Shown: positions 3,392-44,688, counted from the stretch's first letter. The stretch is DNA of 64,000 bases from a virus (IMGVR_UViG_2588254079_000001:2998-66997); one strand, 5' to 3'. Translations and numbers: made by a program. The notes: generated by a model from the sequence alone, not told the origin.

Positions 3392-3566
3392 GAATGTCAG
3401 GCCAATAAATGTGTTATACTGTTTAGAAACGGAGTACGACGAGTAAAAAAGGAATAGGACCGGTTGTGGGAGTTCGGTGGAGCATGGCTATAAGAGTAAT
3501 CGGGCTGAATATACAATACAAGGAAATGCTATCCACCCGCTTTGGCTACAGGTGGATATGTTATTG

Positions 3567-4037: not shown

Positions 4038-4051
4038 ATTCTTTGATTTAT

Positions 4052-4378
4052 TATTTCCCTTTGCTTGAAGCTCTTTCGGCTTCTTGCCGGGGATTGATTT
4101 TTATGCAGGATTAACAGTGGAATAAGGGCGATAAGACAAGTAAACAGTAAATGGAATGGAACGGAATACCCAACCTTCGAATGTAAGAGCAGAAGCATGC
4201 TTGTCCTTTTATACCTTGCAATGAGAAGGGGACTGAAAGTCAATCTTTGATTTGAGGAAGGCTGCCGTAAAATATCCAGGAACCGTTAGCATAGCGGTGC
4301 TTGACAATCGTCCGGACACTGTACCTTTGCATATAAAATCTCTTCGGCCAGATTTGCCGATGGTGCGATAAGGGAATA
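4052..4378. promoter_or_regulatory. Fold-back element H1, putative ssDNA promoter
   Basis: TATTTCCCTT/AAGGGAATA and GATTTTTATGC/GCATATAAAATC arms; TACCTTTG at 4322-4329 on + with CTTG 18 nt upstream. Confidence 0.65.
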
Positions 4379-4506
4379 CTCAGAATGGAAAAACATAAAA
4401 AGGGGTATCATATTATAGGCGAAATATATAACAGAGCTAATATAAGTCCTAAAAAAATATTTTTGCTATCTTTGCCAGAGTATTATATAATATTAAGAAC
4501 ATAACA

Positions 4507-4680
4507 ATGGAAAAAACATTTACACAAATCTGTGAATTGTTCGATCAATTCTCAAAAGATGCCAACCTCCAGATGGAGAAAAGCAACAAAGCTGCCGGAA
4601 CTCGTGCCCGCAAAGTATCACTTGAACTTGAAAAACTTCTCAAACAGTTCAGAAAAGAGTCACTCGAAGCATCGAAATAA
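4507..4680 (+). CDS. Histone H1-like (Hc1-family) small basic protein, 57 aa, not in the ORF track
   Basis: MEKTFTQICELFDQFSKDANLQMEKSNKAAGTRARKVSLELEKLLKQFRKESLEASK; NKAAGTRARK signature; TATCTTTG upstream. Confidence 0.85.
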   Translation: MEKTFTQICELFDQFSKDANLQMEKSNKAAGTRARKVSLELEKLLKQFRKESLEASK

Positions 4681-4738
4681 TTTTCATTCTGGTTCTGACA
4701 GTAGGAAAATGGCGAACTTCACGTGTACCATATCGAAA

Positions 4739-4768
4739 AAGCCTCTTCGCTTCACAGCGGAGAGGCTT
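4739..4768. terminator. Probable bidirectional terminator
   Basis: AAGCCTCTTCGCT...AGCGGAGAGGCTT stem between convergent genes. Confidence 0.65.
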
Positions 4769-4809
4769 CATTGATTATGACAAAGTTAAACATCAATTAT
4801 GCGAAATTT

Positions 4810-6252
4810 CTATTTCGCTTTTGGAAAAAACAACTCCACTTTCGTATGTCTGTTGGCTTCCACGGGCGTATAGTCGGCAATTCCACCTTTGCTAACTCTG
4901 ATAATCCGCTTGGCTGGTATTCCACGTTGTTCCAGTTCTGCGGTAATAAAACCTGCTCTCGATATACTCAAAGAATCATTGATACTTGATGTTCCTGTAG
5001 AACTGTCAGCAGCACCAGTTACCCTCACGGATAAACTGTATTTCTTAGCTACACGAGCCAGTTCGTCAAGATTAAGCCTCTGTGAGGTATCCGTCAGATG
5101 TGTCGTATTGAGAGCAAAAAAGAAATAGATGGGTGTACCGATGCACTCTCCATCAGCGTATGAAAGAACCGTGGAATCCATAGCGAGGGTGTCCTGATGG
5201 GCGGACTGCACATTTCGGGAAGCCGTGTAATTATATGATGGCTTTCCATTCTCTGTCTGAAGAATAGTCGTGTCAAGAGGTGACGACCCGTCCCAATAGC
5301 TATGCTTCAATCTTGCACGAAGCGAGTTCAAACCGCTATAATTATTTATAGGATATCTGCATCCGGTTATATCGTCGTTGTCAAAGATATGGCTATATGT
5401 ATCGAGTAGTCCTTCGATTTCCAGAATTTTCTTTAATTCCACGAGCGTTCGCTTATCTTGATTGTGACGTCCCACATAACGCCTGTTCTCCTCCGAAAGG
5501 AAGTTGCCATAATCGACAAGCAGTTCGTTCCGATGGATGTATGGTGCCGTATCCACTGCGCGCTTCCAGCCGACCTTACCGAGATGAAAGGTGAATCCGG
5601 CAGTCAGCGAAAGCATGTGATCGCCCAGACGGTTTGGATAGCCATATCCGTCGAAATCCTGGAATGTAGTTGTGTTAGAGAGTTCCAGCATAGCACTAAC
5701 CCGTTTGGAAATACGGTATTGTGTTAGTATGCCGTAAGAAAGCGCAAAGGGATTGTTCCCGTTGGTGGCGTTATGTAGCAGACCGACACCCATAAAGGGT
5801 GCAAGCCTCCAACGTACCTGTTCCTGTCGGGCATATCTGCGTCCAAGGAGATTCCACAGGAGATCTGCATGGATATAATGGTAGTCCTGCGTAGATAATT
5901 GTGCATCCTTAAACTGCAAGCCACTATAATTTACCCTTGCGCCGACCAAAGGAGTAAACCATTTGCCGACGGCGAGGCTGTACGAAGGTTTCACTCGTCC
6001 AAAAAGGTCTTCACAACCGAGAGGTGTACCAAGAAAAACTGTCGCACCTCCGGATATGCTAACAAACCAGTTGCCGGTTCGAGATGCCGGAAGTAGCACC
6101 CCGTTGAGATAGACGGGCTGCATCGGTTGAAGCAATTCCGCTACTTCATAATGAATAGTGTGTCGTACAGTGTCCTTCTGTACGGGTTGTACACTTGCTT
6201 GTGCCTGCAACGTGCAGAGCAAAGCGAAGATGAAAATAATTTGTTTCGTCAT
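4810..6252 (-). CDS. OmpA-family outer membrane protein
   Basis: Signal peptide, beta-barrel-like N-terminal part (GKWFTP), and C-terminal GAADSSTG...NDSLSISRA...NR OmpA-like domain. Confidence 0.85.
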   Translation of the reverse strand: MTKQIIFIFALLCTLQAQASVQPVQKDTVRHTIHYEVAELLQPMQPVYLNGVLLPASRTGNWFVSISGGATVFLGTPLGCEDLFGRVKPSYSLAVGKWFTPLVGARVNYSGLQFKDAQLSTQDYHYIHADLLWNLLGRRYARQEQVRWRLAPFMGVGLLHNATNGNNPFALSYGILTQYRISKRVSAMLELSNTTTFQDFDGYGYPNRLGDHMLSLTAGFTFHLGKVGWKRAVDTAPYIHRNELLVDYGNFLSEENRRYVGRHNQDKRTLVELKKILEIEGLLDTYSHIFDNDDITGCRYPINNYSGLNSLRARLKHSYWDGSSPLDTTILQTENGKPSYNYTASRNVQSAHQDTLAMDSTVLSYADGECIGTPIYFFFALNTTHLTDTSQRLNLDELARVAKKYSLSVRVTGAADSSTGTSSINDSLSISRAGFITAELEQRGIPAKRIIRVSKGGIADYTPVEANRHTKVELFFPKAK

Positions 6253-6305
6253 ATTCCAATGATTTCATTAGTTATACTTTTAATCTGGTGTAAAGCGTAT
6301 GCCAT

Positions 6306-7763
6306 TTACCGTTTAGATTTCTTGCCGATAGTCGAGCGCATCATGCGGCTCGCCATCCTCATACAGCGAAGTGCCCATGCTCGATTGTCCTCGTCCTCGT
6401 CGCGTCCCCATTTGAGGTCACTCCCTCCGCCTCCACCACCATGTGATTCGGCAAATGTAGTGGCATCATCTACCATTCCGAGAAATAGCATTGTCGCACA
6501 GTGCATGATTTCCGTACCCCGCTCGGCGATAGACTGTACCAGTGAACCGTCAAAGAGCTGCCGTTCTGAAACATTCATTTGTGCCGATGCGTTACGATAC
6601 TCGCTGATTACACTCTCCAGTAGGACGTCTTTAAACAAGCTATCCACTTTGGAGTGTACATCACGGGAATATTGATAGGCCTCCTCTTTGAGTTCTTCGG
6701 TACGTTCTTCAATGGCTCCCATATCCTTTTTCAGTTCGATGAGTTGCCGGTCAGCCGTCTGCAACTTTTCCTGCTTGTCTGCCAGTTGTCTGATGATTCC
6801 TTGCAGCTCTTTTTCCAACATTTGTATTTGGATTGCCAATTCTGCCGCATTGCCTTTGTTTTCTTTTAAATTGTACTCGGCTGCCGATAACAAGGTTTCT
6901 TTTTCAGTTTTCTGCTTTTCAAGATTGCTAATCATTGTCGTAAGCCCTTTGACTCTGCGTTCTGCCAACCGGATGTCTGATTGAAGTTCACCCAATACCT
7001 GTTGATGGAGTTTGATATTATCCTCGATTGTTGTACACTCTTCAGACAACATTCGGCGGTATTCCTCAGTCGTTCTGTGCCGTGCACCCGTTTCGGATAT
7101 GCTTGTTCCTCTTGACATTCCCCACTTTGTATTGACTTCTGCGAAAAAGTCCGTATGAAGTTGTTTCATTCTTGCACTATATTCAAACTTATCCTTACCG
7201 GCGAAGATTTCCTTGTACGCAAAGCGACTATCCTTGATTGGCAGAAGCGTACAGTGGATATGCGGGTTCAATTCATCCAGATGTACAATGAATGCAGCGA
7301 TGTTCTGCTCACCATATCTGCCACAAACGAATGAATAAACATCCTTGGCCCAGCGTTCAATGTCACGCTTCCGTTCGATGCGGGTATTGTCCGCACCTTT
7401 TTCAAAGTCCACCTGTTGCGTACCGAAAGCAAGTTCCTGCATTCGCTGCCGTGAACCGCCGAAGATGATATTTACCACCGTGCGGTATTTTGGTTCGAGC
7501 AGCCCCTCATTAGGATCTTTGATTCCACGGTGACTCAATATGTCCGCCATCCGTTTGGGAATGCTACGGCTTGTGTCGATGGGATGTATTTTACCTCCGG
7601 GCGCAATCTCGAAGTTCAGCCGTTTACGCGTAGGATCATAATTTCCCTTACTCATAGCGTACTTCTCTGCCTTTTCACTACGGTCACGCAGATGTTCATT
7701 ACTTTGGGCGGTGGTAATCCCTTTCGACACCTGCACGTCGAGTACCTGTTTTTGATTTGCCAT
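6306..7763 (-). CDS. mobV: MobV (Mob/Pre) family relaxase
   Basis: EHLR, NFE and VHLDELNPHIH motifs with a long coiled-coil C-terminus; start at MANQKQ (7763). Confidence 0.88.
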   Translation of the reverse strand: MANQKQVLDVQVSKGITTAQSNEHLRDRSEKAEKYAMSKGNYDPTRKRLNFEIAPGGKIHPIDTSRSIPKRMADILSHRGIKDPNEGLLEPKYRTVVNIIFGGSRQRMQELAFGTQQVDFEKGADNTRIERKRDIERWAKDVYSFVCGRYGEQNIAAFIVHLDELNPHIHCTLLPIKDSRFAYKEIFAGKDKFEYSARMKQLHTDFFAEVNTKWGMSRGTSISETGARHRTTEEYRRMLSEECTTIEDNIKLHQQVLGELQSDIRLAERRVKGLTTMISNLEKQKTEKETLLSAAEYNLKENKGNAAELAIQIQMLEKELQGIIRQLADKQEKLQTADRQLIELKKDMGAIEERTEELKEEAYQYSRDVHSKVDSLFKDVLLESVISEYRNASAQMNVSERQLFDGSLVQSIAERGTEIMHCATMLFLGMVDDATTFAESHGGGGGGSDLKWGRDEDEDNRAWALRCMRMASRMMRSTIGKKSKR

Positions 7764-7969
7764 ACGTTTTTCATATTGTTTCGGACAATCTACCGTGTCC
7801 CAGCTTGCTGCTTGTTCGGACACCCTTCCCACCAACGTCAGGCAGGTGGGGTATTAGGCTCCCCCTTCCCTTTGTTCGTGGCAGGCGGGCAAGCCCGGAT
7901 GCCTTCTATAACTGGCAGGGGGGCTTCACTGGATACAAAAGTGGATTGTTGCGGTTATACATTCTGTTT

Positions 7970-8836
7970 TCAACCTCCAATCTGATACGTTGCCTCCTGT
8001 GCCTTTGCCGCAAATGCCAGAAAAGGCTTAAAAAGCGTTTTAAGGAACTCCCTGTCATCTTCATCATAATCGGAATTTTCATCCCTATCTACATCAAGAA
8101 TAAGCCCGGCAATACCTTTCGAAGTTGCAATAAGTCCTGTCCAGTCTCCATACAATTCCAATCGGAAGTAGTCCATAAACTCTGCACTGTCATCGAATCT
8201 CGACTTACGCAGTGCCCGTTGTATAGCGGCAAATGTAATGCACTCCAAAGCTACCATACGAATCTTGACAGCTCGTTCATCATCATCCGCTGCCGGATTG
8301 ATGCGAGTGATACTGTCCGGAGATGGGCAGCTATCGCATATGCCAGCTTCATCCATTGCCCGACGAACAAGTTGCTCACACTTGATTCCGATCTCGTCAA
8401 GGGACACTTTGCCGATTATCCAATCGGACAATGCCTCACGTAGCTGTTCTGCAAGGTTCAACTTCTTCTGTCCATTGCAAGACTCCGTGGATTGGCTGGT
8501 TTGCACAGTCATGGTAATGATGACGCTTTTGGAAAGCCGGATGCGATTCAACAAGCCGAACTCTTCCATTACATCCAAAAAAGAACGGACAGTAGCCCTA
8601 TGCCAATGCCATTCCGATGAAAGGTCAGAAACAGTCACGTGGCACTGGTTGGGTTGAAGTTCGTAGCCTTTGTTCCTTAAAAAAGGGGAAACAAAACCTG
8701 CCAAAGATTTATCCAATAAATCACAGAAGGCTTCTATCTTTGTTTTTCGTTCACCGACTTTCTCCTTGAGGTAGTCAAATACTTCTCTGTCTGCCAATAT
8801 AGGGACAGCTATTTTCTGCTTGGTTTTCATTTTCAT
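7970..8836 (-). CDS. Hypothetical protein with probable N-terminal winged-HTH
   Basis: TVSDLSSEWHWHRATVRSFLDVMEEFGLL resembles a wHTH; lies upstream of mobV. Confidence 0.6.
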   Translation of the reverse strand: MKMKTKQKIAVPILADREVFDYLKEKVGERKTKIEAFCDLLDKSLAGFVSPFLRNKGYELQPNQCHVTVSDLSSEWHWHRATVRSFLDVMEEFGLLNRIRLSKSVIITMTVQTSQSTESCNGQKKLNLAEQLREALSDWIIGKVSLDEIGIKCEQLVRRAMDEAGICDSCPSPDSITRINPAADDDERAVKIRMVALECITFAAIQRALRKSRFDDSAEFMDYFRLELYGDWTGLIATSKGIAGLILDVDRDENSDYDEDDREFLKTLFKPFLAFAAKAQEATYQIGG

Positions 8837-8854
8837 TTCATTTTTTAATTATTA

Positions 8855-9412
8855 CTATTGTGCGGATATATCAGTGTTGCCGCTATCCGCATCTTGCGGC
8901 AATATCGCGTGATGATGGTCATAATAACTTTCGGCTAATAGTCTGGGGAATTTCATCCATTCAGAGATTATGCCTATGTCCTGAAATTCGGTCATAACCC
9001 GAACAGAGGGATAGAACAGGGCAGCCAAAAGAAGATAGGCGGCAGTTACCGCCGTTGTGTACAAGTGTGGAACAAAACTGATGGCCAAAGCCACCAATGA
9101 GAGTATGACAAACATACATGGTCGGTCACATAAACCTCTTAACAATCTGTCCGCTCTCCTAAATGAATATATAGTGGCACAGATAGCAGTTGAAAGAAAA
9201 ACACCGAACTCGCCAACATGTCCGCTGATGTAAACATAGTGGAAGAGCAATAGCAGAATCAATACGACCTGTACATATAGTTTACGAGCCTTTACACTGT
9301 GTATCATAGCATCGTAGAACCTTACCATAAAAGAACGGTGGCTTTTGTACAATGCTAATGGCAATACGAAAAGCGTTATACAGAAGATAAGTTGTAGTAT
9401 ATTCCAAATCAT
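8855..9412 (-). CDS. Hypothetical membrane protein
   Basis: About five hydrophobic segments; overlaps the upstream stop by 4 nt. Confidence 0.75.
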   Translation of the reverse strand: MIWNILQLIFCITLFVLPLALYKSHRSFMVRFYDAMIHSVKARKLYVQVVLILLLLFHYVYISGHVGEFGVFLSTAICATIYSFRRADRLLRGLCDRPCMFVILSLVALAISFVPHLYTTAVTAAYLLLAALFYPSVRVMTEFQDIGIISEWMKFPRLLAESYYDHHHAILPQDADSGNTDISAQ

Positions 9413-9804
9413 AAATAATAGGGTTTCTCGCGTATTTGAATGGGGGATATCATCAACTCTAATTGGACAATATTGTGGGTGGCCAATAGGATGATAACTT
9501 CGGCGTCCCTCGGTGAAAGGTATATCGCTGCTTTCTTAATACGTTGCTTGAACGTATGCTCCTGCTTACGGTAGGCTGCCAATGCCTTATCCAGTTTATG
9601 TTCCGGAATTGTCCATGTCATGCCTTTGGCGTATGAGCCTTTGTCTTTGTAAGCCCGCAGTACCAACGTGCGGGAAACAATGTAATTGATATATCCGTTT
9701 CTTGACAAAGCATACTCCTTATAGAAATTGTCATCAACAACCTCTATCCATGTCCGGTATTCCCTAATCCAATAAACCATTTGTCGGTATAGTGTGTCCC
9801 GCAT
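9409..9804 (-). CDS. Hypothetical protein
   Basis: 131-aa ORF in a tightly packed operon. Confidence 0.7.
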   Translation of the reverse strand: MRDTLYRQMVYWIREYRTWIEVVDDNFYKEYALSRNGYINYIVSRTLVLRAYKDKGSYAKGMTWTIPEHKLDKALAAYRKQEHTFKQRIKKAAIYLSPRDAEVIILLATHNIVQLELMISPIQIREKPYYL

Positions 9805-9814
9805 AACATGACCA

Positions 9815-10267
9815 TTAAAGGAAATCCATCAAGAGATCGTCTTTGTTCTTCTTATACTTGAATGTGCCACTTTTGGAATGAAGATCCAAATCAAGGCACA
9901 GCTCGCCGTACATCTGCTCAAGAGAATCATAGATGGTGACAAGAATGCTATTTACCTTACCGTCTGCATCTGTCTTGCAATTCATCTTGAACATCTGTCC
10001 AAATGCCGGGTTGGAGTATGCACAGGTGCTATGCCCGAATTTGTCAGCGTGCGTGGGGATGTGGTGGTAGAGAGTTATAAGCTCCATATCGTCCTCAAAC
10101 AGATCCATCACTTCCTCCAAATCGTAAGGGTCGCGTAGCGGGAAGGTCAGTAGAGCGTAGTCACCGTAGAATTGTGCTTCCTCCATTGTCGTCACATCGA
10201 GTAGTTGCGGTAGTTGCAGAGGGACAAATGTCATAAAGTCATTGAAAAAATGTCGTAACATATTCAT
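9815..10267 (-). CDS. Hypothetical acidic protein
   Basis: 150-aa ORF in the same operon. Confidence 0.7.
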   Translation of the reverse strand: MNMLRHFFNDFMTFVPLQLPQLLDVTTMEEAQFYGDYALLTFPLRDPYDLEEVMDLFEDDMELITLYHHIPTHADKFGHSTCAYSNPAFGQMFKMNCKTDADGKVNSILVTIYDSLEQMYGELCLDLDLHSKSGTFKYKKNKDDLLMDFL

Positions 10268-10278
10268 TTTTTATATTG

Positions 10279-11337
10279 TTAGAGCGTCTGTATGAAAATA
10301 TCCATAAGCATTCCTGGCAGTTCAGTCAGTTGACCACTTTCCGATTGCAGGATTCGGCTCAAGGTTTTGAACGCCACAGGTGTCTGTGCCGCCATCCTGT
10401 CAAGTTGTTTCCGTTCTTTATCGGAAAGCAATGTCATAGAGAATCCGTCCAGTGAAGTATAAGGGTGGATAAGCATCCATATATAAGCATGTGCTTGCGA
10501 AGAAGTCTTGATTTTTTTGTTCCGAACATCTTCTATACAAATCTGCATATTTTGTATTTGGCGACGATTGGTGCGCATTGTCAAATAAAGCATAGCCTCC
10601 CGATAGGTAATCTCCTTTCTCTCAGCGGCAAAGAATATCTGCGAACAACACTGTTCAGTACCACGTGTGATGTCAGCCATACTCTCACCTTCGAAATCGT
10701 GCAAGTGAGAGAGGAACGCACGGAATATAGCATCTTCTTTAGTGATATAAGTAATCAGTTCATTGCGGCTATGTATGCCGTTACGGATAGTTCGAGTCAG
10801 TAACATACGGTAAGCCGCAAGGATTTCCTCTTTGTTACCCTTATGAAGCGGAAGATTATCCAGTGAGTTGAAAAACGGGCGGATTTCTCCAGCGGCATGA
10901 TGCAGTTCCTCATCATTGTTATAAGGTGAGAACTCTCCTTTGAGAGCCAAAAGTTCCTGATAAGTACGCGTCTTTGAGAGGGCTAAGCGTGAGAACTCAG
11001 TGCGGATAGAATCATGCAGTCTGATACACTCTTCACGCTGATTGGAATGGGGGTGGCTGAGCGTATCATTCCGGAGATACCTAAAAACAGAGTCTTTTAC
11101 AGTTTGCCATTGTAGGATATGCTTGGTCAATACTTGAAATGAGGAATCTTTCTGACGTCGTATATTGTATAAGTACTCCCTGTATATTCCGGCAGGATCG
11201 TTCGTAGCTTCAGACAATGATTTGCCATTTCTATCGCTGCATGATATCAGGCCCAATATGGCCAATGAAACGATACATCTTCCAGTCAAAAATGATGGAG
11301 TCTTGTAGTATGATTTTAAAATTTTCATATTTAACAA
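10279..11337 (-). CDS. Probable lipoprotein
   Basis: Lipobox-like LGLISC after a hydrophobic stretch; true start may be 11328. Confidence 0.7.
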   Translation of the reverse strand: MLNMKILKSYYKTPSFLTGRCIVSLAILGLISCSDRNGKSLSEATNDPAGIYREYLYNIRRQKDSSFQVLTKHILQWQTVKDSVFRYLRNDTLSHPHSNQREECIRLHDSIRTEFSRLALSKTRTYQELLALKGEFSPYNNDEELHHAAGEIRPFFNSLDNLPLHKGNKEEILAAYRMLLTRTIRNGIHSRNELITYITKEDAIFRAFLSHLHDFEGESMADITRGTEQCCSQIFFAAERKEITYREAMLYLTMRTNRRQIQNMQICIEDVRNKKIKTSSQAHAYIWMLIHPYTSLDGFSMTLLSDKERKQLDRMAAQTPVAFKTLSRILQSESGQLTELPGMLMDIFIQTL

Positions 11338-11563
11338 TTCATATTTAACGATGCAAATCTATATATTATTTTTATTGTAAAAGCTCTTTTATATCGCATT
11401 TAGTATAATTTTTGGTATCATATTAATAATATGATTATCAATGAAAACAAGTGCAAGAAAAAAAGCTAAAAAAAGGATTCAGCGAGATTTTTGCCACGAT
11501 ATGATTTTAGATTAAAATGAAAGTGCTATATTTGCACTTGTTATCAAAACAGTGTATATTAAA

Positions 11564-12208
11564 ATGGCAAAAGTTGGCTATATATTCAAGGAAAATAATG
11601 ACAGTTTTGATGCTGAGAGAGAATGGATGCAGCGATACGGTTGTGTACAAATCGTAGAGGAAACAGTTGAACATGAAACATTGAGACCTATGTGGAAACA
11701 GCTTATGGCGAATCTTCAAAGGGGCGATGAAATAGTCATATCCAAATTCAGCAATGCTGCACGCGGTTTAAGAGAACTGGCCGCGTTCATCGAACTATGC
11801 CGTATCAAAATTGTACGTGTCATATCCATTCATGACAGAGTTGATACTCGCGGTGAATTATTCCCCGGTACGACAGCAGCCGATGTGTTGTGGATAATAG
11901 GGGCATTTCCGGAAGAAATTGCCGCACTACGAAAATATTCCGCTCATGTCGAGAAGTTACGCCAGAATATCAAAGCCCCGGCTATGCCGAAGGTATTACC
12001 TAAAGCTGAACGAGATAAGACAATCGTGGATATGTATATCAACGGGCATTCTTTCGATGACATTTGGGCTGCAAGCGGTTTTAGCAGCAAAAGTTCTATT
12101 TGGCGCATACTCAATAAATATGGCGTAAAACTTGATCGTGGCCAAACCAGCGGTCCGCGTGTCAAACAGAACCCGAAAGAGGACGGAACAAATGAAGGTG
12201 GCTCCTGA
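11564..12208 (+). CDS. Resolvase/serine-recombinase-fold protein with C-terminal HTH, catalytic motif degenerate
   Basis: VGY...RP...L..GDEIVI...AR pattern, but GYIFKEN replaces GYxRVS; TATATTTG promoter at 11527-11534. Confidence 0.75.
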   Translation: MAKVGYIFKENNDSFDAEREWMQRYGCVQIVEETVEHETLRPMWKQLMANLQRGDEIVISKFSNAARGLRELAAFIELCRIKIVRVISIHDRVDTRGELFPGTTAADVLWIIGAFPEEIAALRKYSAHVEKLRQNIKAPAMPKVLPKAERDKTIVDMYINGHSFDDIWAASGFSSKSSIWRILNKYGVKLDRGQTSGPRVKQNPKEDGTNEGGS

Positions 12209-12297
12209 TAGAATTTTCAGATAATCAGGATCGTATATTTGTTTTTCGGTTATTATTTTGTATTTTTATTATTGTTAAAACTATAAAAGTAAGACTT

Positions 12298-12402
12298 ATG
12301 GGAGATATTATAATTGTATTGCTGGTATTCTGGGTTGTCGGCAAGCTCTTGAAGGGCGTGTTTGGCGGTTTCAGTAAAAGCAGCTTCAAAGATGATAAGT
12401 AG
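12298..12402 (+). CDS. Putative 34-aa single-TM peptide, not in the ORF track
   Basis: MGDIIIVLLVFWVVGKLLKGVFGGFSKSSFKDDK after an AT-rich leader. Confidence 0.5.
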   Translation: MGDIIIVLLVFWVVGKLLKGVFGGFSKSSFKDDK

Positions 12403-12577
12403 GCCAGCCAAGGGATGGGATAAATACGGTCAAAAAAGACTGGTTCAAGAGGCGTGAAATTGTAAGAAGGAAGTGGAATGGAATAAATATAAACGGAGCT
12501 TCCGGCAACAGGAATCCAGGATATATCGGTTGAGATATACCCTGAATACATGTCGGATATTGTCTGTCCGGAGATGT

Positions 12578-13258
12578 TTAGGCTTTCCACCTATACCCCT
12601 CGTCTGTCAGTTCCAAGTATTCCTCTAATCCCGGTTTTACGAAAAAGACAATTTCAAAGGCTTCGTTACTTCCGTTATCGGGGAATGTCATGTCGGTTTC
12701 TCCATTTCGGATAGTCCCTTTGCCCACGTTGGAACCAAGGTCTTCATCCGCATAGGCATATTGAAACTCGACGTCCGGAAATATCTCGGAGAGTGTTTGG
12801 ATAAGCAGAGGCACACCTTCCCAAGCCGTATCAAACCAAAGCACGTTCGGTTCTTCAAAATTCTGATTAAAGGCATTCCATTTTGTACCCCAGTTGGCAA
12901 TAGACCATTCATACCAAGTAGGATAACCGTATTTTCCCCAGTTTCTCAGATATGTCATTCCAAGTTGTAATGCTTCTTCCCTGACTTTTTCCTCCTGAAT
13001 TTCCATCCATTGAATGACTTTCAGGTCGTCCTGTGAATTGAACGGTTTACGTTGCTGTGCTATGATATACTGCATACCAAATTCCCCAGAAGTGGACGCT
13101 TCTATCAGTAAGTCCTTTGGCATAGGGATAATGTTGTTGAAGTCAATATAGCAAGGCGTACTGTCTTCATCAGTTTTTCCTTTTAAGAAATCCATCACAT
13201 TTTGTACTGTTTCTCTGTCTGCGTTTATTTCTAAACGGTTTGTTACATAATTAGGCAT
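12578..13258 (-). CDS. DUF1281/Api92-like protein
   Basis: MPNYVTNRL, DFNNIIPMP, WYEWSIANWGTKWNA and FDTAW motifs. Confidence 0.8.
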   Translation of the reverse strand: MPNYVTNRLEINADRETVQNVMDFLKGKTDEDSTPCYIDFNNIIPMPKDLLIEASTSGEFGMQYIIAQQRKPFNSQDDLKVIQWMEIQEEKVREEALQLGMTYLRNWGKYGYPTWYEWSIANWGTKWNAFNQNFEEPNVLWFDTAWEGVPLLIQTLSEIFPDVEFQYAYADEDLGSNVGKGTIRNGETDMTFPDNGSNEAFEIVFFVKPGLEEYLELTDEGYRWKA

Positions 13259-13292
13259 GATTTTAATGTTTAAAGAATTGGTTAGTATTAAC

Positions 13293-13529
13293 TTTTATTT
13301 CCCATATTGTCGGTTCTTTACTGATTGAACCGTTTTGGGATTTATGGATGCGGTAAACGGATGTCGATACAGCTTCATACGGCAACTTTTCTTGCCAAAT
13401 TACTCTTGCGCAGGAAGGAAGAATTTTGTAAGAAATACACTTCAAGTAGCAGGATCAAGCGCGATAGCCGACCTTTGCATCTGATAAAACCAAACCGGTG
13501 ATAGGATGAAGAATAGATGGGAGATAAAA
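13293..13529. promoter_or_regulatory. Fold-back element H2, putative ssDNA promoter
   Basis: ACCGTTTTGGGATTTATGGATGC pairs with GCATCTGATAAAACCAAACCGGT; GACCTTTG at 13470-13477. Confidence 0.6.
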
Positions 13530-13738
13530 TGAAAAATAATTAATATAAAAGAAGAATGCTATTCCTTTTGCAGAAATATAAAAAAGGAATAGAATGATAT
13601 AATTATAAAAGAGGGGCTATTATTACCCTCTCAATTATAAGAGGGTATGTTCTCAAACTCGCGCCCCTTATTTGTAATACTGTAATACTGTAATACCGCA
13701 ACACCTCCGTTAAAGGTCATTACGGTATTTTTTTTGAA

Positions 13739-13993
13739 TTATTCTTGTGTTGCTTCCATAGCATTGCTGTATTCTTTGATTTGCTCCATTGTCAGCCATT
13801 CGGGTTTTTCGTTTTCTCGGAAGCTGTCGTGAATTTTCGTCATGTATTCAATTTGTGTCTTTTCAGAACCAGCCCACAAACGACGAGAACTTTTGTTTCC
13901 AAAGCCAAGATAATATTCACAGTCGGCTTGCAAACGCCCCAATAACATATACCTGAATTTTAAATCGTGCTGTAATACTTCTTCTATTGTCAT
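13739..13993 (-). CDS. LPD11-domain protein
   Basis: YMLLGRLQADCEYYLG...LWAG...KPEWLTMEQI signature. Confidence 0.8.
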   Translation of the reverse strand: MTIEEVLQHDLKFRYMLLGRLQADCEYYLGFGNKSSRRLWAGSEKTQIEYMTKIHDSFRENEKPEWLTMEQIKEYSNAMEATQE

Positions 13994-14024
13994 ACTCGTT
14001 TTCGTTTTTAATTAAGTTTTTTAT

Positions 14025-14269
14025 TTTCCCTTTTTTCAAGTCTTTCGACTTTGCCGGAAGGGTTGTTTTTCATGTGCGTCCCAAACGACGAAGCAGGAAC
14101 GCAGTGCAAGGAATCGGAAATGAAATTTTATGAATACCGAAATCTATGATTTAGGAAGATTACGTCAAATTTCATTTCGGATAGCGTAGCGATACTTGGA
14201 TAGCGTTCGTTCGCCGTAATTTTGCACACGAAAACAAGACCGGGCGAAAGTCTGGATAACGACAGGAAA
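14025..14269. promoter_or_regulatory. Fold-back element H3, putative ssDNA promoter
   Basis: GACTTTGCCGG..TTGTTTTTCATGTGC pairs with GCACACGAAAACAA..CCGGGCGAAAGTC; inner GAAATGAAATTT/AAATTTCATTTC; TAATTTTG at 14217-14224. Confidence 0.7.
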
Positions 14270-14483
14270 CATCAACATTCATTACATAAGGACTGTAAAA
14301 GAGAAGCAGGCAGTTACGCTGCTATAAAAGGGAAACAAGGAAATTAAAAAAGTGGGCACGGAGCAATCTGTAAAAAAGGGGGATGCCACCTGTCTTCGGG
14401 CAAAAGAAGATACCATACCGATATGATTTAACCGATACGGTATCTCTTTGGTAGTCATCAGTACCATACTTTCAGAAAACCAT

Positions 14484-14984
14484 TTAAAAACATTCGATAT
14501 TCGCCTCTTGGAAAATCTGCGGGGCGTGCTGATAAAGCAAAGGAAGATTCAATACCGCCATTGGATATTCCACAAATCCGCTTCTACGCTTGTAACCTGA
14601 ATAGGTCGCTAAATTATTTGTCTCCAGAAACTCCATTGCATCCGGATAATGATTCACATCAATAAATGTACGGTCTGGCAAATCGAGTGCATCCATGCTC
14701 TCCAAATTGACGGATAGCACGATATACTCTGTTTCATCTTCCACACTTTGCAAAGTAAGTGCTAACCAGCCATTGCCATAAAATTGAGGCATGAGATAAA
14801 AGCGTTCTCCACGAAACTCGTATTCTTTCCGCGTTAGGGAGCTGTCCGGCTCTACCAAGCGAAAATCATCCTCTCCAGAAACAAATTCTGTTGATGGGTC
14901 GCTGACATCCACATACGTTCCATTTACATTGTGACACAAATACTCTGCATTTTCTGAACGAACAATCACAAATTGAATTTCCAT
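14484..14984 (-). CDS. DUF4313-like protein
   Basis: Y.NGWLAL...LSVNL...FIDVN...SGFVEYP pattern. Confidence 0.7.
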   Translation of the reverse strand: MEIQFVIVRSENAEYLCHNVNGTYVDVSDPSTEFVSGEDDFRLVEPDSSLTRKEYEFRGERFYLMPQFYGNGWLALTLQSVEDETEYIVLSVNLESMDALDLPDRTFIDVNHYPDAMEFLETNNLATYSGYKRRSGFVEYPMAVLNLPLLYQHAPQIFQEANIECF

Positions 14985-15020
14985 ACTTTTAAAATTTAGC
15001 TATTAAACATCATGTTCTTT

Positions 15021-15318
15021 TTTTCCCTTTTTTCGGAAGCCTTTAGGCTTCTCCAGTCGGGATTTGATTTTTACGTGCATTCAAGATTGCCTTTAAGGAA
15101 AAGCAGGCAAGGAATTTGGACAGAATTTTTACAGTTGCGGTATGGAGCGTATACGACATTTGAGCGATTGAAAATCGGGAAAGCTACTGAAAAATTGTGT
15201 TCAAATAGCGTAGCGGTACTTGAATGTTTTTCCGTGGCAATACCTTTGCACAGGAAAAAACAAGTCCTGACTGGTAGCAGCCTGAAACGAAATAATTTCG
15301 TTTTATACAAGGGTAAAA
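15021..15318. promoter_or_regulatory. Fold-back element H4, putative ssDNA promoter
   Basis: AGGCTTCTCCAGTCGGGATTTGATTTTTACGTGCA pairs with TGCACAGGAAAAAACAAGTCCTGACTGGTAGCAGCCT; TACCTTTG at 15241-15248. Confidence 0.7.
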
Positions 15319-15402
15319 CGGAGTGATAAAAAAGGGAATGACCACAAAGAGCAGCCGACAAAAGCCGGCTTTCTTTTGTTCCTGTGGGAGGAGCTGGGAC
15401 AT

Positions 15403-15717
15403 TTAATCCGTTACATCATAATAATAGCTTAGCTCGTCATCTTTCAGATACTCCATTGCATATTGACTGGCTTGTGCCCAAAGGGTATTATACAATGTCG
15501 CAATTTCCGGCCTTGTTTCATAATGCTGCCATATCTTATGGTTAAGCACTAAAACCAGTTCCGTGAGATACTTGTAGTTCTCTTTCCACTCCTCAAAAGC
15601 ACGGCTGAAAGTGTCCTGTATCGCCGAAAGACCAAATCGGTCAGCAATGGAAAAATCATTCCAAAAGGTTGTTTGCAATTCATAACCGTTCTCTAACATA
15701 AATTCTCTGAATGTCAT
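15403..15717 (-). CDS. Hypothetical protein (mobile-element type)
   Basis: 104 aa, TTFWNDFSIADRFG...LTELVLVLNHKIW; preceded by a fold-back. Confidence 0.8.
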   Translation of the reverse strand: MTFREFMLENGYELQTTFWNDFSIADRFGLSAIQDTFSRAFEEWKENYKYLTELVLVLNHKIWQHYETRPEIATLYNTLWAQASQYAMEYLKDDELSYYYDVTD

Positions 15718-15750
15718 AATGCCTCAAATTTTAAGATTAATATTTTATTT

Positions 15751-15969
15751 ATTTCCCTTCGATACTTCCTGTACCGAAAGGTTGATTATTTTTCTGCCCA
15801 CGGGATTGGCGGCCAGAACGGGCAAGGAGGATGCGGAAAATACACTCTTCGATATTTCGGAGAGGAAGATTTTACAGCAGCAAGTGTCAGCGGTCCTTGA
15901 CAGGACGGACAGCCGGCAATCGAATTTTGCAGGGAAATAACCAGGCTTGCGGGATAGAAATATAGGGGG
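15751..15969. promoter_or_regulatory. Fold-back element H5, putative ssDNA promoter
   Basis: TTATTTTTCTGC/GCAGGGAAATAA and GCAAGGA/TCCTTGA arms; variant box GAATTTTG at 15922-15929. Confidence 0.55.
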
Positions 15970-16182
15970 TAGCTGGATGGGGCTATAAAGGAGGGCCGGA
16001 GTCTAAAAAAGGAAACTGGCACAAGCGGCCACCTACAACAGTTGGGCGGGAACATTCATAAATGTGTAAAAAGGAATAGTTTCCCACCACATTTTATGCA
16101 GAATATATACGGCATAAAACACAAGTGCCGTAACAGCCTCTTGAGAAAGCGTTACGGCATTTGTTTAAGTACAGGTTACAGG

Positions 16183-16710
16183 CTATTTTACCTGAACGAG
16201 GTTGTCCTGTAGAGTTTTCCAGCCATACACTGCGGCCACATAGGGGTGGAGGGAACGTGTAACTTGGCGAAAACCATTCTCGTCAATTTCATAGTTGTAG
16301 ATTTTTGCGGCAATCCGTTCTGCGTCGTCACGATTTTCAGCGACACGGTACAAAACATAATTCGTGCCATCATGGTGCGACATACGGCCTCGTATATCGT
16401 AGCCGTCACCGTACCACTCTGCATCATACTGTGTAGATTGTAATATCCCGGCAATGTTGTCACCCAAAATTTGATAGCCTTGTTTGCGTCCGTTCCACAA
16501 TCCTAAATCTCCAAATGCAATAATGACTCCATTGACATCCTTGTTTAGGTTCTGCCGCTCATCCCCCAATTCATTATACACTTCGTCCGACCACTCTTCA
16601 TCGCTGACCTTGTAGGCATCATCGTCCAGTTCTTCTCGCTTGAAATTTTGATAATACTCTCTTGCTGTTTCATCCAATAGAGCATCACTTGACCAAATTA
16701 TTTGTTTCAT
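16183..16710 (-). CDS. Hypothetical acidic protein
   Basis: 175 aa with LGLWNG and HHDGTN motifs; own fold-back and terminator. Confidence 0.8.
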   Translation of the reverse strand: MKQIIWSSDALLDETAREYYQNFKREELDDDAYKVSDEEWSDEVYNELGDERQNLNKDVNGVIIAFGDLGLWNGRKQGYQILGDNIAGILQSTQYDAEWYGDGYDIRGRMSHHDGTNYVLYRVAENRDDAERIAAKIYNYEIDENGFRQVTRSLHPYVAAVYGWKTLQDNLVQVK

Positions 16711-16724
16711 ACATTCTAATTTTT

Positions 16725-16953
16725 TATTTTCCCTTCCCTTCAGAGGCTTTTACCTCGTCCGGTGGGATTTGATTTTACGTGCAAACCACAAGGCGGAAGA
16801 AGAGAACAATGCAAGGAGGAAGCGGAATCCGAAGGATTTCATTTGAACGGCATTGACTGCAAATGAAACGCGCCTTGCAGGTTCACGTCCGACTTAACTT
16901 CGCACTGTAAAATTAATGGACGGCGGACGTAACCTCACTTTTGGGAAGAAATA
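16725..16953. promoter_or_regulatory. Fold-back element H6, putative ssDNA promoter
   Basis: ATTTTACGTGC/GCACTGTAAAAT, CGTCCG/CGGACG and TGCAAGG/CCTTGCA arms; TAACTTCG at 16895-16902. Confidence 0.6.
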
Positions 16954-17197
16954 TGGTTATAAGAGGGACTGGAAAGCTGCTCAGAGGTATGGAATTGAGA
17001 GAGTCTTCTTTTTTCTATTGAAAATCGTAATCTGCCTGTTCATCAAGTGGAGCTAAGTATAACAGTATTACCGGGTGAAGATTTCATTTGGAGCTTGGCA
17101 TCGCAACAGTCACTTATAAAAGTATGATGCGTATTAATCCGGTCATGAGCAAAACAAAAGCGACCAAAAGATCGCTTTGTTCATGATAAGGCAAGAA

Positions 17198-17578
17198 TTA
17201 TTTTTTGCCTTTTTTCACGGGCTTTACCGGCTTTTCAGGAACATCCTCCTTTTCGATAGGAGGATAAAACTTGACAGCCACCATAACAACACGATTGTGC
17301 TTCACACCGACCTTGTCGGTCCACTCTTCAGGCTTAAAGTAGCCTTCAATGGTGAGCATCGTACCTTTGGTCAGTTGGTCGAATGACCCAGTATTCTCGT
17401 TTTTACGCCAAGCCTCAATATTCATAAAGGCTGAAATGCGGTTGGTTTCCTCGGCATTCCTTTCCTGACGGCTTACGGCCAATGGGAAACGTGCGACACT
17501 GCTGTTGGTGAACTCTCGGATTTCAGCGTCTTTACCTAAGAATCCGGTTACTGTGAAATTGTTTTCAATCTTTTTCAT
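17198..17578 (-). CDS. ssb: Single-stranded DNA-binding protein
   Basis: N.F.VTGFLGKDAE...RFPLAV...EAW...KG..L.IEG OB-fold pattern; basic rather than acidic tail. Confidence 0.85.
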   Translation of the reverse strand: MKKIENNFTVTGFLGKDAEIREFTNSSVARFPLAVSRQERNAEETNRISAFMNIEAWRKNENTGSFDQLTKGTMLTIEGYFKPEEWTDKVGVKHNRVVMVAVKFYPPIEKEDVPEKPVKPVKKGKK

Positions 17579-17583
17579 GTTGA

Positions 17584-17818
17584 ATTGCTTTTAGAAGTTA
17601 TTAAATCAATTTTTACACTGCCTAAAAAGTAGATGTCGTTTAAGGGATGCACCAAGGATAGCGCGTCAATACGCTTTATTTTTAGCCACAGGTAAAATCG
17701 AAGGCTCGATAAAGGAAGATTGAAGCGGCTACGCCATTGGTCAAGACAACCATGTCGTTCCCGTCGGCATACTATCTTTGCAGAGGAAAAATGATGATTG
17801 CTTCGATAAAAAGCGATT
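17584..17818. promoter_or_regulatory. Fold-back element H7 upstream of ssb, putative ssDNA promoter
   Basis: ATTGCTTTT..GAAG..ATCAATTTTT..CTGC pairs with GCAG..AAAAATGAT..CTTC..AAAAGCGAT; TATCTTTG at 17773-17780. Confidence 0.6.
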
Positions 17819-18275
17819 ATGGAAAATGGGAAACAAGTAAACCGGTAATGATAAGGAAAAAGAGCAAATCCAAATGTCGGCACAAAGGCGAAACATCCGT
17901 CCGAAAGTCAGTGAAGAATAGCAAAGCCAAAGCGAGACATGCCTGGCTTGAATTGAGACTGTAACAAACAGAATACCATCCAATCAGAAAAAAGGCCACT
18001 GCATAAGGAATGTGTCAGCCAAGAGTGGACAGAAGCGTAGGTAGCCCATCCTTGGAGGATAGTGATATCCGCATCGAAAAAAAATGGAACTGGAAGGAAA
18101 AACGGCAGGAAGAACCAGACTTTTCACAAAGTGGTTTCCAATTCGCTTTGTGCGAATGGCTGGTTTCTACAAAAGGGAGTGGCGCAGCCAAAAGAAAAAG
18201 TTATAAAAGGAAAATGGAAGTAAGGCTGAAATGGGTGATTCCATTCCAGCCAGTCGATGATATTTGTCCAAGGTG

Positions 18276-18536
18276 TCATTGAAATTCAACCATCATAATA
18301 CGATGCTCGAATATTTTGGTTTTGTCGCTGGGACGTCGCTGGCAAACCCAAAGGTGTCGTGCACCGTAACCGTATGTGAAATATTCATCAAGTGGAGTTT
18401 TTTTCTCCAACTGTCTCATGCTTTCACGCAATTCCGCCTCATTGCCAGAAAAAAGAATCGTGTTAATGATTCGGAAATAAAGTTCAGTTACCTCGTCACA
18501 ATAGGGGCAAAAGCTGTGTTCAATTGTTACTTTCAT
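18276..18536 (-). CDS. Hypothetical protein with CPYC motif
   Basis: 86-aa ORF in an operon. Confidence 0.7.
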   Translation of the reverse strand: MKVTIEHSFCPYCDEVTELYFRIINTILFSGNEAELRESMRQLEKKTPLDEYFTYGYGARHLWVCQRRPSDKTKIFEHRIMMVEFQ

Positions 18537-18550
18537 GCTTCTTTTGATTT

Positions 18551-18880
18551 TTATTGTACTTCGATTATATCTTCAATTCGACCATATAGGACAGAACGTA
18601 GTGCGGTTTTGTCAATGGCATAATATTCGGCAATATGTCCGTGTTGTTTCACGAAATACCGTTTGAGAACATCGGAGAAGTCAAAACGGTAGCCCATTAA
18701 AGCGATACCTCTTTTGAAATGGCAGCACTCTTTCACATTGCGGGTGAGCCAGTTCTTTTCTTCCCGACTCAACTTGTCGCCATTATCAAGACGTTCCCGT
18801 AATTTGTAAACCTTGCTATCTTTCAGTTTTTCCAATTCGGGCACATCCCATTGGACGAATTTCATTGCTATCTGTGTCAT
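18551..18880 (-). CDS. Hypothetical protein
   Basis: 109-aa ORF in an operon. Confidence 0.75.
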   Translation of the reverse strand: MTQIAMKFVQWDVPELEKLKDSKVYKLRERLDNGDKLSREEKNWLTRNVKECCHFKRGIALMGYRFDFSDVLKRYFVKQHGHIAEYYAIDKTALRSVLYGRIEDIIEVQ

Positions 18881-18907
18881 GGTTTCTATGTTGTAAAATT
18901 GTAAAAA

Positions 18908-19039
18908 TTACTTCATCACAGTATTTAATACTCTCTCTTTGCCACAGATGAAACGAACAGTGATTTTGTTGTCGAAATCACCGACAATCGTTCCATCCGT
19001 GTGTCTCTTATAGAATAAGCAAAGTGTAGGATAGAGCAT
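18908..19039 (-). CDS. Possible 43-aa protein, not in the ORF track
   Basis: ATG..TAA frame filling the gap between two co-oriented genes. Confidence 0.35.
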   Translation of the reverse strand: MLYPTLCLFYKRHTDGTIVGDFDNKITVRFICGKERVLNTVMK

Positions 19040-19062
19040 AATTTTACTTTATCTTCTTCTAC

Positions 19063-19365
19063 TCATTCAGTTACTAATTTGACCTTCCATTCTCCCTGAG
19101 AGAATATTCTAAAGCTCACGTACTCGTCTTCAAATTCATAGGTTAGAATCTTGATATAGACTTTATCTTTGTCCTCCAACGATTCTACCAATTTTTTGAT
19201 TTCTTCTTCTGGATACACCCAACGAGAGGAAAATTCTGCATCTACACTATCACCATATCGATTGGTAAATTCGCTGAAAGTGTCATCCAAGAAAGCCTCT
19301 ATTTTGTCGAGGTCTGTTTTATTTTCCGTTCTTGCGTGGAAAATGTTGGTTGCATAATTTGCCAT
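19063..19365 (-). CDS. Hypothetical acidic protein (DUF1281-like ferredoxin fold suspected)
   Basis: MANYATN...FSSRW resembles MPNYVTN...FDTAW of 12578..13258. Confidence 0.65.
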   Translation of the reverse strand: MANYATNIFHARTENKTDLDKIEAFLDDTFSEFTNRYGDSVDAEFSSRWVYPEEEIKKLVESLEDKDKVYIKILTYEFEDEYVSFRIFSQGEWKVKLVTE

Positions 19366-19390
19366 AAATACCAAGTTTTAAGTTTGTTAC

Positions 19391-19630
19391 TTTCCCTCCT
19401 GTAGCATTTCACTTACTTTCGGGCTTGATTGAAATTATGTCGCTTCAACAGGTGGCATGGCTATGTATGCAGGGTTTCACTACAAAATACGACCTCTGCG
19501 AAGCGGAGCGTGGAGATTTTGTAGTGAACCTTCAGGTTACAACCTTGCATACAATAAAGACATGGCAAATACCTTTGCGACACAATTCCCATCGGGCAGA
19601 CCGAAAGTTGATATGCGAGCATGTGGGAGT
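19391..19630. promoter_or_regulatory. Fold-back element H8, putative ssDNA promoter
   Basis: ACTTTCGG/CCGAAAGT, GTATGCAGGGTT/AACCTTGCATAC and TTCACTACAAAAT/ATTTTGTAGTGAA arms; TACCTTTG at 19570-19577. Confidence 0.7.
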
Positions 19631-20978: not shown

Positions 20979-21044
20979 ATCAGACTTTATATTCATAAAT
21001 ATTGCATCAACAAATATTAATCCTCAAAAGCAAAAACAGATACT

Positions 21045-33588: not shown

Positions 33589-33591
33589 ATC

Positions 33592-35751: not shown

Positions 35752-35776
35752 AAGCTCATTGTTTTAATTTATATGG

Positions 35777-35817: not shown

Positions 35818-35825
35818 AAATAAAA

Positions 35826-40151: not shown

Positions 40152-40167
40152 ATTTAAATTCTGCTTA

Positions 40168-44686: not shown

Positions 44687-44688
44687 AG

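Follow-up and report, generated by a model that had tools for sequence, protein, structure and literature searches.

Single-strand promoters are an active topic and are held to explain how the anti-defence genes of plasmids are expressed before the host reacts. To our knowledge, every described example has sigma-70 boxes and lies on an enterobacterial-type plasmid, and searches have been built on that consensus. In the F plasmid, the single-stranded Frpo stem-loop is reported to rebuild the −10 and −35 boxes, and transconjugants depend on Frpo1 and Frpo2 to express ygeA, ssb, and yfjA early; duplex conversion switches both promoters off (PMC9849209). A third F promoter, ssp2, reportedly has a different sequence and the same design (PMC13478746). 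For the Bacteroidota, the consensus is given as TAnnTTTG at −7 and TTTG near −33 (PMC7366714). Here, we describe eight imperfect fold-back elements (H1–H8) that precede minus-strand genes in a 64,000-nucleotide stretch of viral DNA (IMGVR_UViG_2588254079_000001:2998-66997; hereafter the window, with positions counted from its first letter on the plus strand). On balance, these elements appear to be Frpo-like single-strand DNA promoters built for the Bacteroidota primary sigma factor.

The array shares several features with Frpo1/Frpo2 (ssp1a/b) and ssp2 of F and with ssi of ColIb-P9, as these are described (PMC9849209, PMC13478746). In each case, a long imperfect stem-loop lies in the template strand of the downstream genes, both boxes of the host sigma factor lie in the stem, and the stem-loops stand upstream of ssb and small establishment genes, the latter being putative here. 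Several copies occur per element, some of them near-identical, and the promoter is lost on duplex conversion, as is proposed for the present copies. Unlike those of F and ColIb-P9, the boxes here are the Bacteroidota −7 TAnnTTTG and −33 TTG and not sigma-70 −10/−35 boxes; the ~19-kb carrier, an integrative mobilizable MobV element, has eight such hairpins, one for each transcription unit; and the distal-arm box is a full duplex consensus, with promoter activity being predicted. A blastn comparison of 7.2 kb (12500-19700) with the 72,556 plasmids of PLSDB gave matches in 39 records, only from Bacteroides, Parabacteroides, and Phocaeicola, and found no sequence homology to Frpo and no enterobacterial plasmid. 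Therefore, the likeness to Frpo is one of design, not of descent.

A sequence-only reading of the window knew of no description of such promoters with this consensus, and none was found in the full-text literature, the supplementary Frpo-like candidate lists of PMC11541004 aside. Full-text searches for single-stranded DNA promoters together with Bacteroides returned nothing. Judged by titles and abstract openings, none of the papers listed with TAnnTTTG deals with single-strand promoters, and in the one paper checked that has both Frpo and Bacteroid*, the two are unconnected. Samuel et al. (2024) do not mention Bacteroid* in their main text, and the search reported there used Frpo homology and −35/−10 boxes (PMC11541004).

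The eight minus-strand gene starts named in the sequence-only reading all exist, and each is preceded by an imperfect fold-back of 229-346 nt. Seven of the open reading frames (ORFs) start with ATG (4037, 13258, 13993, 14984, 15717, 16710, and 17578), and the eighth was called from TTG at 19374; an ATG at 19365 lies in the same frame. When the plus strand was folded as DNA (minimum free energy), one long-range stem with 43-74 long-range pairs formed per element, spanning 322, 237, 346, 316, 273, 229, 236, and 248 nt in H1–H8, and the stem base was 1-29 nt from the start codon in all eight. Relative to 40 dinucleotide shuffles, the plus-strand z-scores of H1–H8 were −0.8, −4.6, −3.4, −8.2, −3.3, −2.5, −4.4, and −5.5, and a separate folding run gave −8.1 for H4 and −3.4 for H3. 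Folding each plus-strand copy as DNA, a check that the sequence-only reading had proposed, was thus clearly non-random in seven of the eight (z −2.5 to −8.2). Free energy was lower on the plus strand in 8/8 window copies and in 5/5 copies of the plasmid pMMCAT, and on the template strand in 33/33 distinct relatives.

All fold-backs are given on the plus strand. H1 (4039-4393; arms 4039-4142 and 4298-4393) is the weakest hairpin and carries the box TACCTTTG at 4322-4329, with CTTG 18 nt upstream. H2 (13260-13557; arms 13260-13398 and 13425-13557) has GACCTTTG at 13470-13477, and H3 (13995-14303; arms 13995-14123 and 14172-14303) has TAATTTTG at 14217-14224 with CTTG 18 nt upstream. The best hairpin is H4 (15009-15327; arms 15009-15122 and 15198-15327), in which TACCTTTG lies at 15241-15248 and CTTG again 18 nt upstream. 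The boxes of H5 (15747-15978; arms 15747-15828 and 15894-15978) and H6 (16725-16953; arms 16725-16816 and 16873-16953) are GAATTTTG at 15922-15929 and TAACTTCG at 16895-16902, with CTTG 22 and 17 nt upstream, respectively. H7 (17583-17818; arms 17583-17670 and 17736-17818) carries TATCTTTG at 17773-17780, and H8 (19393-19628; arms 19393-19476 and 19541-19628) carries TACCTTTG at 19570-19577 with CTTG 22 nt upstream. An alignment of the eight paralogues by MAFFT was too poor for pair counting (44% mean identity), and exact 9-nt repeat seeds recovered fragments of H3 only. No Rfam match at gathering score was found in 3500-20500.

As a separate observation, the motif TAGCRTAGCGRTRCTTG occurs at 4284-4301, 14189-14206, and 15212-15229, and also near 3915 of one relative (L027) whose hairpin differs otherwise. 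It ends in the −33-like TTG, and in H3 and H4 its first ~10 bases bulge out unpaired from the distal arm. The motif may be bound by a protein or may act as an upstream recognition element.

In all eight copies, the distal arm carries a −7-like box on the plus strand, as had been noted; five match TAnnTTTG exactly and three are one base off. With 56 occurrences of TANNTTTG on both strands of the 64 kb (128 kb in total), the 828 nt of distal arms should contain ~0.36 by chance, as compared with the five exact ones seen (Poisson P about 4e-5). CTTG, paired with CAAG, is found 17-22 nt upstream of the box in six of the eight (H1, H3, H4, H5, H6, and H8), in agreement with the sequence-only reading. 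On the minus strand, TANNTTTG is absent from 11362 to 21385. Ordinary boxes are present 27-33 nt upstream of plus-strand genes of the same element, at 4467, 11527, and 20261.

The sequence-only reading had also stated that the bases opposite the box are mismatched, which is not simply so. The constant feature, seen in symmetric-score local alignments of the arms, is a proximal-arm complement that never carries an intact box (8/8 window copies), and hence duplex DNA is without a gene-facing box. In H1, the complement of TACCTTTG reads TAATCCTG, with two T positions held as G:T wobbles in the hairpin. The complement is GTCGTTTGGGA for TAATTTTG in H3, AATCTTGAA for TACCTTTG in H4, CTACTTTTTAG for TATCTTTG in H7, and CACCTGTTGAA for TACCTTTG in H8. 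The geometry claimed earlier was recovered: with a distal-arm box in 8/8 and no box on the gene's own strand, it suits a promoter that would face the gene solely in the folded plus strand. The flanks of the box show a dip in pairing at −3 to +1 and a proximal-arm bulge just before its last G. In 39 clusters of relatives, a profile dominated by few families and with 17/39 clusters of the H8 type, there were 78 extra proximal-arm bases before the last G of the box, and the next GCA was paired in 90-100%. Across 43 clusters, the proximal complement agreed with three of the six specified box positions in seven, four in 22, five in 11, and all six in three; the last three are ordinary divergent promoters.

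The relatives were collected by a search with SSB, the single-stranded DNA-binding protein encoded downstream of H7, using one genome per species; 139 loci were found and 80 were kept. They came from Bacteroides, Phocaeicola, Parabacteroides, Prevotella and allies, Muribaculaceae, Rikenellaceae, Barnesiella, and others, with a few contigs binned under Firmicutes or spirochaete names. In these 80 loci and the window, 1361 exact boxes were scanned by local alignment with the reverse complement of a potential partner arm; an RNA duplex-fold scan discriminated poorly (239 vs. 75 at −20 kcal) and was replaced. At a score of at least 60, a partner lay on the 5′ side of 201 boxes, as compared with 28 in the mirrored control; the counts were 122 vs. 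2 at a score of at least 70 and 39 vs. 0 at a score of at least 80. Among the sites scoring at least 60, 193/201 were co-oriented with SSB. The 201 sites fall into 44 clusters, 40 of which are co-oriented with SSB, and three of the odd clusters are ordinary divergent pairs, as at 11354/11527 of the window. In the symmetric arm alignments, G:T wobbles outnumbered A:C by 49 to 19 in the window. This bias argues against a minus-strand RNA structure, being not strong on its own.

Conservation and covariation were assessed in the region upstream of SSB, which was usable in 78 loci, 33 of them distinct. An exact box was present on the template strand at 190-209 nt in 73/78, or in 75/78 when TT[TC]G was allowed, and on the coding strand in one. 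An alignment of 32 rows, comprising the window and 31 of the 33 distinct regions (L033 and L066 were left out), has invariant columns C-T-A-n-n-T-T-(T/C)-G-C-A, in which both n positions vary. The consensus structure was taken from DNA folds of the individual sequences, and partners slid by 1-3 columns served as controls; RNAalifold on a MAFFT alignment of the 32 regions had given 20 pairs with a consensus energy of −3.57 and was replaced. Of all cells, 88% were paired, as compared with 37-49% in the slid controls, a percentage that is biased because the structure was derived from the same sequences; the double-change counts and slid controls are the fairer measure. Changes on both sides were seen in 24 pairs vs. 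7-11 and in 123 cells vs. 22-48, and the covariation score was reached by none of 500 shuffles. The absence of covariation among homologues, which the sequence-only reading had set as a ground for rejection, is thus not what was found. A clean compensatory change is seen in the H4 orthologues L020 and L021, where ACTGG becomes ACGGG and CCAGT becomes CCCGT. In viral contigs, a pattern scan gave 43 matches in 32 stretches with nine distinct strings, mostly from the same element, and the 45-nt promoter stretch of H1 was present in 11 of the 43.

From this geometry, we propose that the element would enter the recipient as the plus strand and that each region of 230-350 nt would snap back into a long imperfect stem. 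The distal (3′) arm would become the non-template strand and present a duplex CTTG at about −33 and TAnnTTTG at −7. As the proximal arm would be the template, RNA polymerase would start a few bases past the box, toward the gene, and would read down the stem into it. G:T wobbles, a base change in TA, or 2-4 extra bases would spoil the proximal complement at the box, and as a result the duplex would lack a gene-facing promoter and the stem would be distorted at the melting region. Synthesis of the complementary strand would then make the hairpin promoter disappear. Use of the hairpin by RNA polymerase is presumed. The interpretation as single-strand promoters put forward in the sequence-only reading is partly supported by these comparisons.

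The same design was observed on other conjugative elements. The ~98-kb conjugative plasmid pMMCAT (NZ_CP072215.1) carries five such elements (scores 68-97 vs. 24-31 mirrored), all on one strand and upstream of PcfK/PcfJ, SSB, HTH-HipA, PRTase-SLOG, and LPD28/N6-methylase genes; they are of two types, one with three near-identical copies and the other with two, and no site in the rest of the plasmid scored above 63. In the available text of the pMMCAT preprint, no passage deals with oriT (the origin of transfer), single-stranded DNA, or DNA hairpins in the plasmid. A TraJ-type integrative and conjugative element (ICE) carries one element, scoring 99, just past the tra genes. For background, the 360 kb around three TraJ genes in a complete Bacteroides genome (294 boxes) contained one site at 99, one at 64, and the rest at the mirrored level.

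The model needs the plus strand to be transferred, and the relaxase gene would therefore enter last. Such last-place entry is usual and is described as the rule that Samuel et al. applied to MOB F, P1, V, Q, H, and B (PMC11541004). In the window, the MobV-family relaxase gene (6306-7835, minus strand; Mob_Pre; NF041497, 172 bits vs. a cut-off of 100) is co-oriented with all eight units, and a MobV homologue was co-oriented with SSB in 42/42 relative loci where it was seen. In pMMCAT, the relaxase gene lies on the strand of the hairpin-served genes, divergent from the tra operon, and the ICE copy is co-oriented with relaxase and integrase. As the 42 MobV loci are one lineage, the tally is three kinds of element with three agreements. 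Co-orientation of served genes and relaxase in the mobilizable element, pMMCAT, and the ICE fits the relaxase-last rule and is the reverse of the pMV158 drawing. In the literature seen on CTn341/CTnDOT and Tn4555, no transfer polarity was found.

Two places in the element are candidates for oriT. At ~19610-19652 (plus strand), in the outer distal arm of H8, GTGTGT lies 8 nt after a 6-bp inverted repeat, CGAGCA...TGCTCG; this is a weak oriT candidate, only loosely like a MobV nick region. At 7840-7925, three direct repeats GGCAGGNGGG occupy part of the 134-nt gap upstream of the MobV gene, and the block conserved among relatives ends just past these repeats, at ~7978. The repeats are a candidate relaxosome or oriT region, unlike that of pMV158.

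Several observations weigh against the proposed single-strand promoters. The polarity of transfer is the first of these: no oriT was found, in that no pMV158-like hairpin with a GTGNGN loop occurs in 1-20400. Accounts of the pMV158 family place both the oligonucleotide that is nicked and the map 'oriT-RBS-mob-ssoA' (5′ to 3′; RBS, ribosome-binding site) on the coding strand of the relaxase (PMC3105389, PMC5090054), a layout that implies the opposite polarity, which the sources as seen do not state explicitly. With that polarity, this element would transfer its minus strand, and the model would not hold for it. Moreover, boxes that match the consensus should likely also fire in duplex DNA, away from the gene, which is not described for Frpo in the sources cited above. 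The hairpins themselves are uneven: H1 is not significant as a whole (z = −0.8), though its arms align (score 52); H2 and H7 are without a −33-like TTG; and pairing covers most of the box in H7 and H8. The z-scores favour the plus strand in only 6/8, and shuffled plus strands also fold better, a composition effect. In addition, G:T and A:C wobbles stood at 261:186 in the 44 relative clusters, a modest strand preference, and the counts from relatives lean on few families, which limits their independence.

Ordinary duplex promoters firing rightward, with small or antisense RNA acting on the 3′ end of the neighbouring gene and the repeat serving something else, are one rival account of the boxes. 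Ordinary σABfr promoters, as described, share the −7 consensus and a TTG at a similar upstream distance (PMC7366714); five of the eight boxes match the duplex consensus exactly, and an RNA of ~125 nt would result if transcription from the H4 box stopped at the terminator-like hairpin 15353-15370 of the plus strand. A sub-threshold Rfam match to PrrB/RsmZ at 15245-15380 (E = 0.19; 21.8 bits vs. a gathering score of 44) is probably due to chance. Unlike that of ordinary σABfr promoters, the box here is on the strand opposite the adjoining gene, ~150-300 nt from its start codon, and we propose that it is usable for that gene only after intrastrand folding. Rightward firing leaves unexplained the spoiled mirror copy of the box and the stem that reaches the start codon, and the genes are left without a promoter. 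Furthermore, a rightward RNA holds the distal arm only and therefore cannot explain selection for pairing with the proximal arm. This account is unlikely to replace folding, and such firing may be true as well in the duplex state. The hairpins could also be single-strand origins (sso/ssi), which yield a short primer for the complementary strand and no mRNA. RNA polymerase-dependent sso hairpins are reported on rolling-circle plasmids, F, and ICEBs1 (PMC4595007), and MobV modules of the pMV158 family carry ssoA (PMC5090054). Like ssoA/ssoU of pMV158-type plasmids and sso1 of ICEBs1, as described, the present hairpins would be orientation-specific folded single-stranded DNA read by the host RNA polymerase, and both are tied to MobV mobilization modules (PMC4595007, PMC5090054). 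In contrast, an sso, as these accounts present it, makes a short primer, does not stand in front of ORFs, and occurs once or twice per element. Here, eight copies lie in ~16 kb, each 1-29 nt from a start codon and oriented into it, and terminator-like hairpins close the units, so that priming alone is quite improbable. Priming could be a second function; Masai and Arai, in 1997, reportedly first described Frpo as both a promoter and a priming site.

A role at the RNA level is another reading: the hairpins would form the leaders of read-through mRNA from the minus strand and would either mask the start region or undergo cleavage by RNase III. An RNA with both arms would occlude the start region because the stem base is 1-29 nt from the start codon, and the minus strand also folds well in H3, H4, and H8. 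However, minus-strand RNA predicts wobbles opposite to the plus-strand bias seen in the window and its relatives, the invariant opposite-strand TAnnTTTG at a fixed place is unexplained, and there is neither a promoter box to make such an RNA nor an Rfam family, which makes this role very unlikely. Selfish palindromic insertions, like miniature inverted-repeat transposable elements with a chance outward promoter, are brought to mind by pMMCAT, where the two sets of near-identical copies stand upstream of unrelated genes. The orientation and the distance to the start codon are constant, however, the box is conserved on one arm only, and Frpo1/Frpo2 of F are likewise described as 92% identical copies (PMC9849209); we regard this origin as highly improbable. 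Invertible promoters (invertons), here in the OFF orientation and flipped by a nearby recombinase, are the rival most directly tested. Promoters between inverted repeats are reported to be common in Bacteroidales (PMC8748976), where a TAnnTTTG promoter points away from its gene in one state, and recombinase genes are at hand, with a serine-recombinase-like gene at 11566-12208 in the window and others on pMMCAT. With the box on the template strand in 73/78 assemblies and on the coding strand in one, no flipped copies were seen, and the reading fails on this fixed orientation. Unlike the short flanking repeats of invertons, the repeats here are 80-140 nt long, imperfect, and covarying, contain the box, and are complementary from base to apex; the arms differ between copies and covary, with no single shared recombinase site. 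Contigs of four transcriptome runs contained no strand-changing joints, which is weak evidence. Inversion can be all but set aside.

A hard-wired two-state switch is a further and rather doubtful possibility, in which gene expression would be confined to the single-strand state, a matter of seconds to minutes. In the incoming strand, each hairpin would be a pre-distorted σABfr promoter driving its gene. In the duplex, the gene-facing promoter would be gone, the same box would fire antisense into the neighbouring unit, and any read-through mRNA would carry both arms and fold over its own start codon. As nearly all genes of this 19-kb hitch-hiker are on one strand, the whole element would act as a 'leading region', and the orphan proteins that it encodes would supply gut Bacteroidales with a store of anti-defence functions. 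The stretch is present in 16 public RNA runs, all in the form of assembled contigs. The four transcriptome runs cover most of 12500-19700 at low depth, carry no strand or start information, and have no bearing on expression; contig ends at 15083 and 16789 are overlapping continuations or gaps and were not taken as transcript ends.

If the single-strand promoters are real, the strategy would have arisen independently in a phylum with a different primary sigma factor. Their signature, a hairpin with TAnnTTTG on the distal arm, would help to locate leading regions and early-expressed genes in gut Bacteroidales, for most of which the direction of transfer has yet to be mapped, and the model makes a prediction about the strand that a MobV element transfers. 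Small orphan proteins, dozens of them, would become establishment or anti-defence candidates, and opposite-strand 'hypothetical' ORFs inside hairpins would be probable annotation artefacts. On pMMCAT (locus L113), opposite-strand 'hypothetical protein' genes are annotated in or just beyond the hairpin gaps at 20654-20797, 21086-21247, 23854-24051, and 28699-28899, and these small ORFs are probably not genes. In the same locus, at 23017-23925, the second SSB-type hairpin of pMMCAT lies upstream of a seemingly degraded SSB 5′ region, ahead of the HTH-HipA pair, which suggests that a promoter-plus-gene module was duplicated.

The array serves eight minus-strand transcription units with 11 ORFs, SSB included. 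The sequence-only reading had spoken of one promoter per gene; one per transcription unit holds, and one per gene does not. The H1 unit (3567-4037) is a 156-aa ORF with no family match, and the H2 unit (12225-13258) comprises a 226-aa DUF1281_C protein (12578-13258) and an overlapping 121-aa ORF (12225-12590). H3 precedes an 84-aa LPD11-domain protein (13739-13993; E = 1.2e-34), and H4 precedes a 166-aa DUF4313 protein (14484-14984). The H5 unit is a 104-aa ORF (15403-15717) followed by the terminator-like hairpin 15353-15370, and the H6 unit is a 175-aa ORF (16183-16710) with no family match. H7 serves the 126-aa SSB (17198-17578; PF00436, E = 5.7e-15), with a terminator-like hairpin at 17157-17178, and H8 serves three small ORFs (19063-19365, 18551-18880, and 18276-18536; unit 18276-19365). 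Terminator-like hairpins lie downstream of several units, and the array therefore reads as eight self-contained units. Only four of the small genes have a family (DUF1281_C, LPD11, DUF4313, and SSB), and searches of NCBIfam and PHROGs added nothing functional. SSB alone is identified, and the served genes as a group are presumably establishment or anti-defence genes.

The array lies within the low-GC part of a 67-kb contig. The gene set at ~1.2-20.2 kb constitutes an integrative mobilizable element of ~19 kb with an integrase, the MobV relaxase, and small minus-strand genes. The tyrosine integrase (1249-2562, minus strand) has an ordinary TAATTTTG box on its own strand at 2505-2512. The likely right end is at 20172, where identity of 99-100% with loci of Phocaeicola plebeius, Parabacteroides gordonii, Bacteroides intestinalis, and a B. 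xylanisolvens metagenome-assembled genome stops; the identity run begins at the edge of the compared loci. No TraJ gene was found near the homologous locus in two of the three genomes searched, and from this gene content the carrier is therefore read as a hitch-hiking mobilizable element and not a self-transmissible ICE.

Within the element, the region 11338-11565 holds an ordinary divergent promoter pair, TAGATTTG at 11354-11361 (minus strand) and TATATTTG at 11527-11534 (plus strand), with a 15-nt inverted repeat at 11442-11456/11532-11546. This pair divides the mob-side operon from the serine-recombinase-like gene, which was read from the sequence. A ninth candidate element at 11527 (score 58) was rejected as the ordinary promoter of this plus-strand gene. 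A histone-H1-like Hc1 protein of 57 aa (4507-4680, plus strand; PF07432, E = 6.8e-23), among the few plus-strand genes of the element, is encoded just downstream of the H1 box and has its own ordinary promoter.

To the right of the element lie IS66 fragments, a topoisomerase, a PRTRC system, and a defence island. The island (32365-49298, minus strand) encodes a SMODS cyclase, a SAVED-HNH effector, a WYL regulator, and type I restriction–modification hsdR/hsdS/hsdM, together with two GmrSD-like genes and one GIY-YIG/DUF4357 gene. Further on, a full-length RT-3 RNA (RF03068; 53396-53545, minus strand; 146.6 bits vs. a gathering score of 40.5), the only Rfam match of the window at gathering score, lies directly upstream of a reverse-transcriptase gene (RVT_1; 52049-53353, minus strand). 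The high-GC part of the window contains an ORF of 2183 aa at 53870-60421 on the minus strand.

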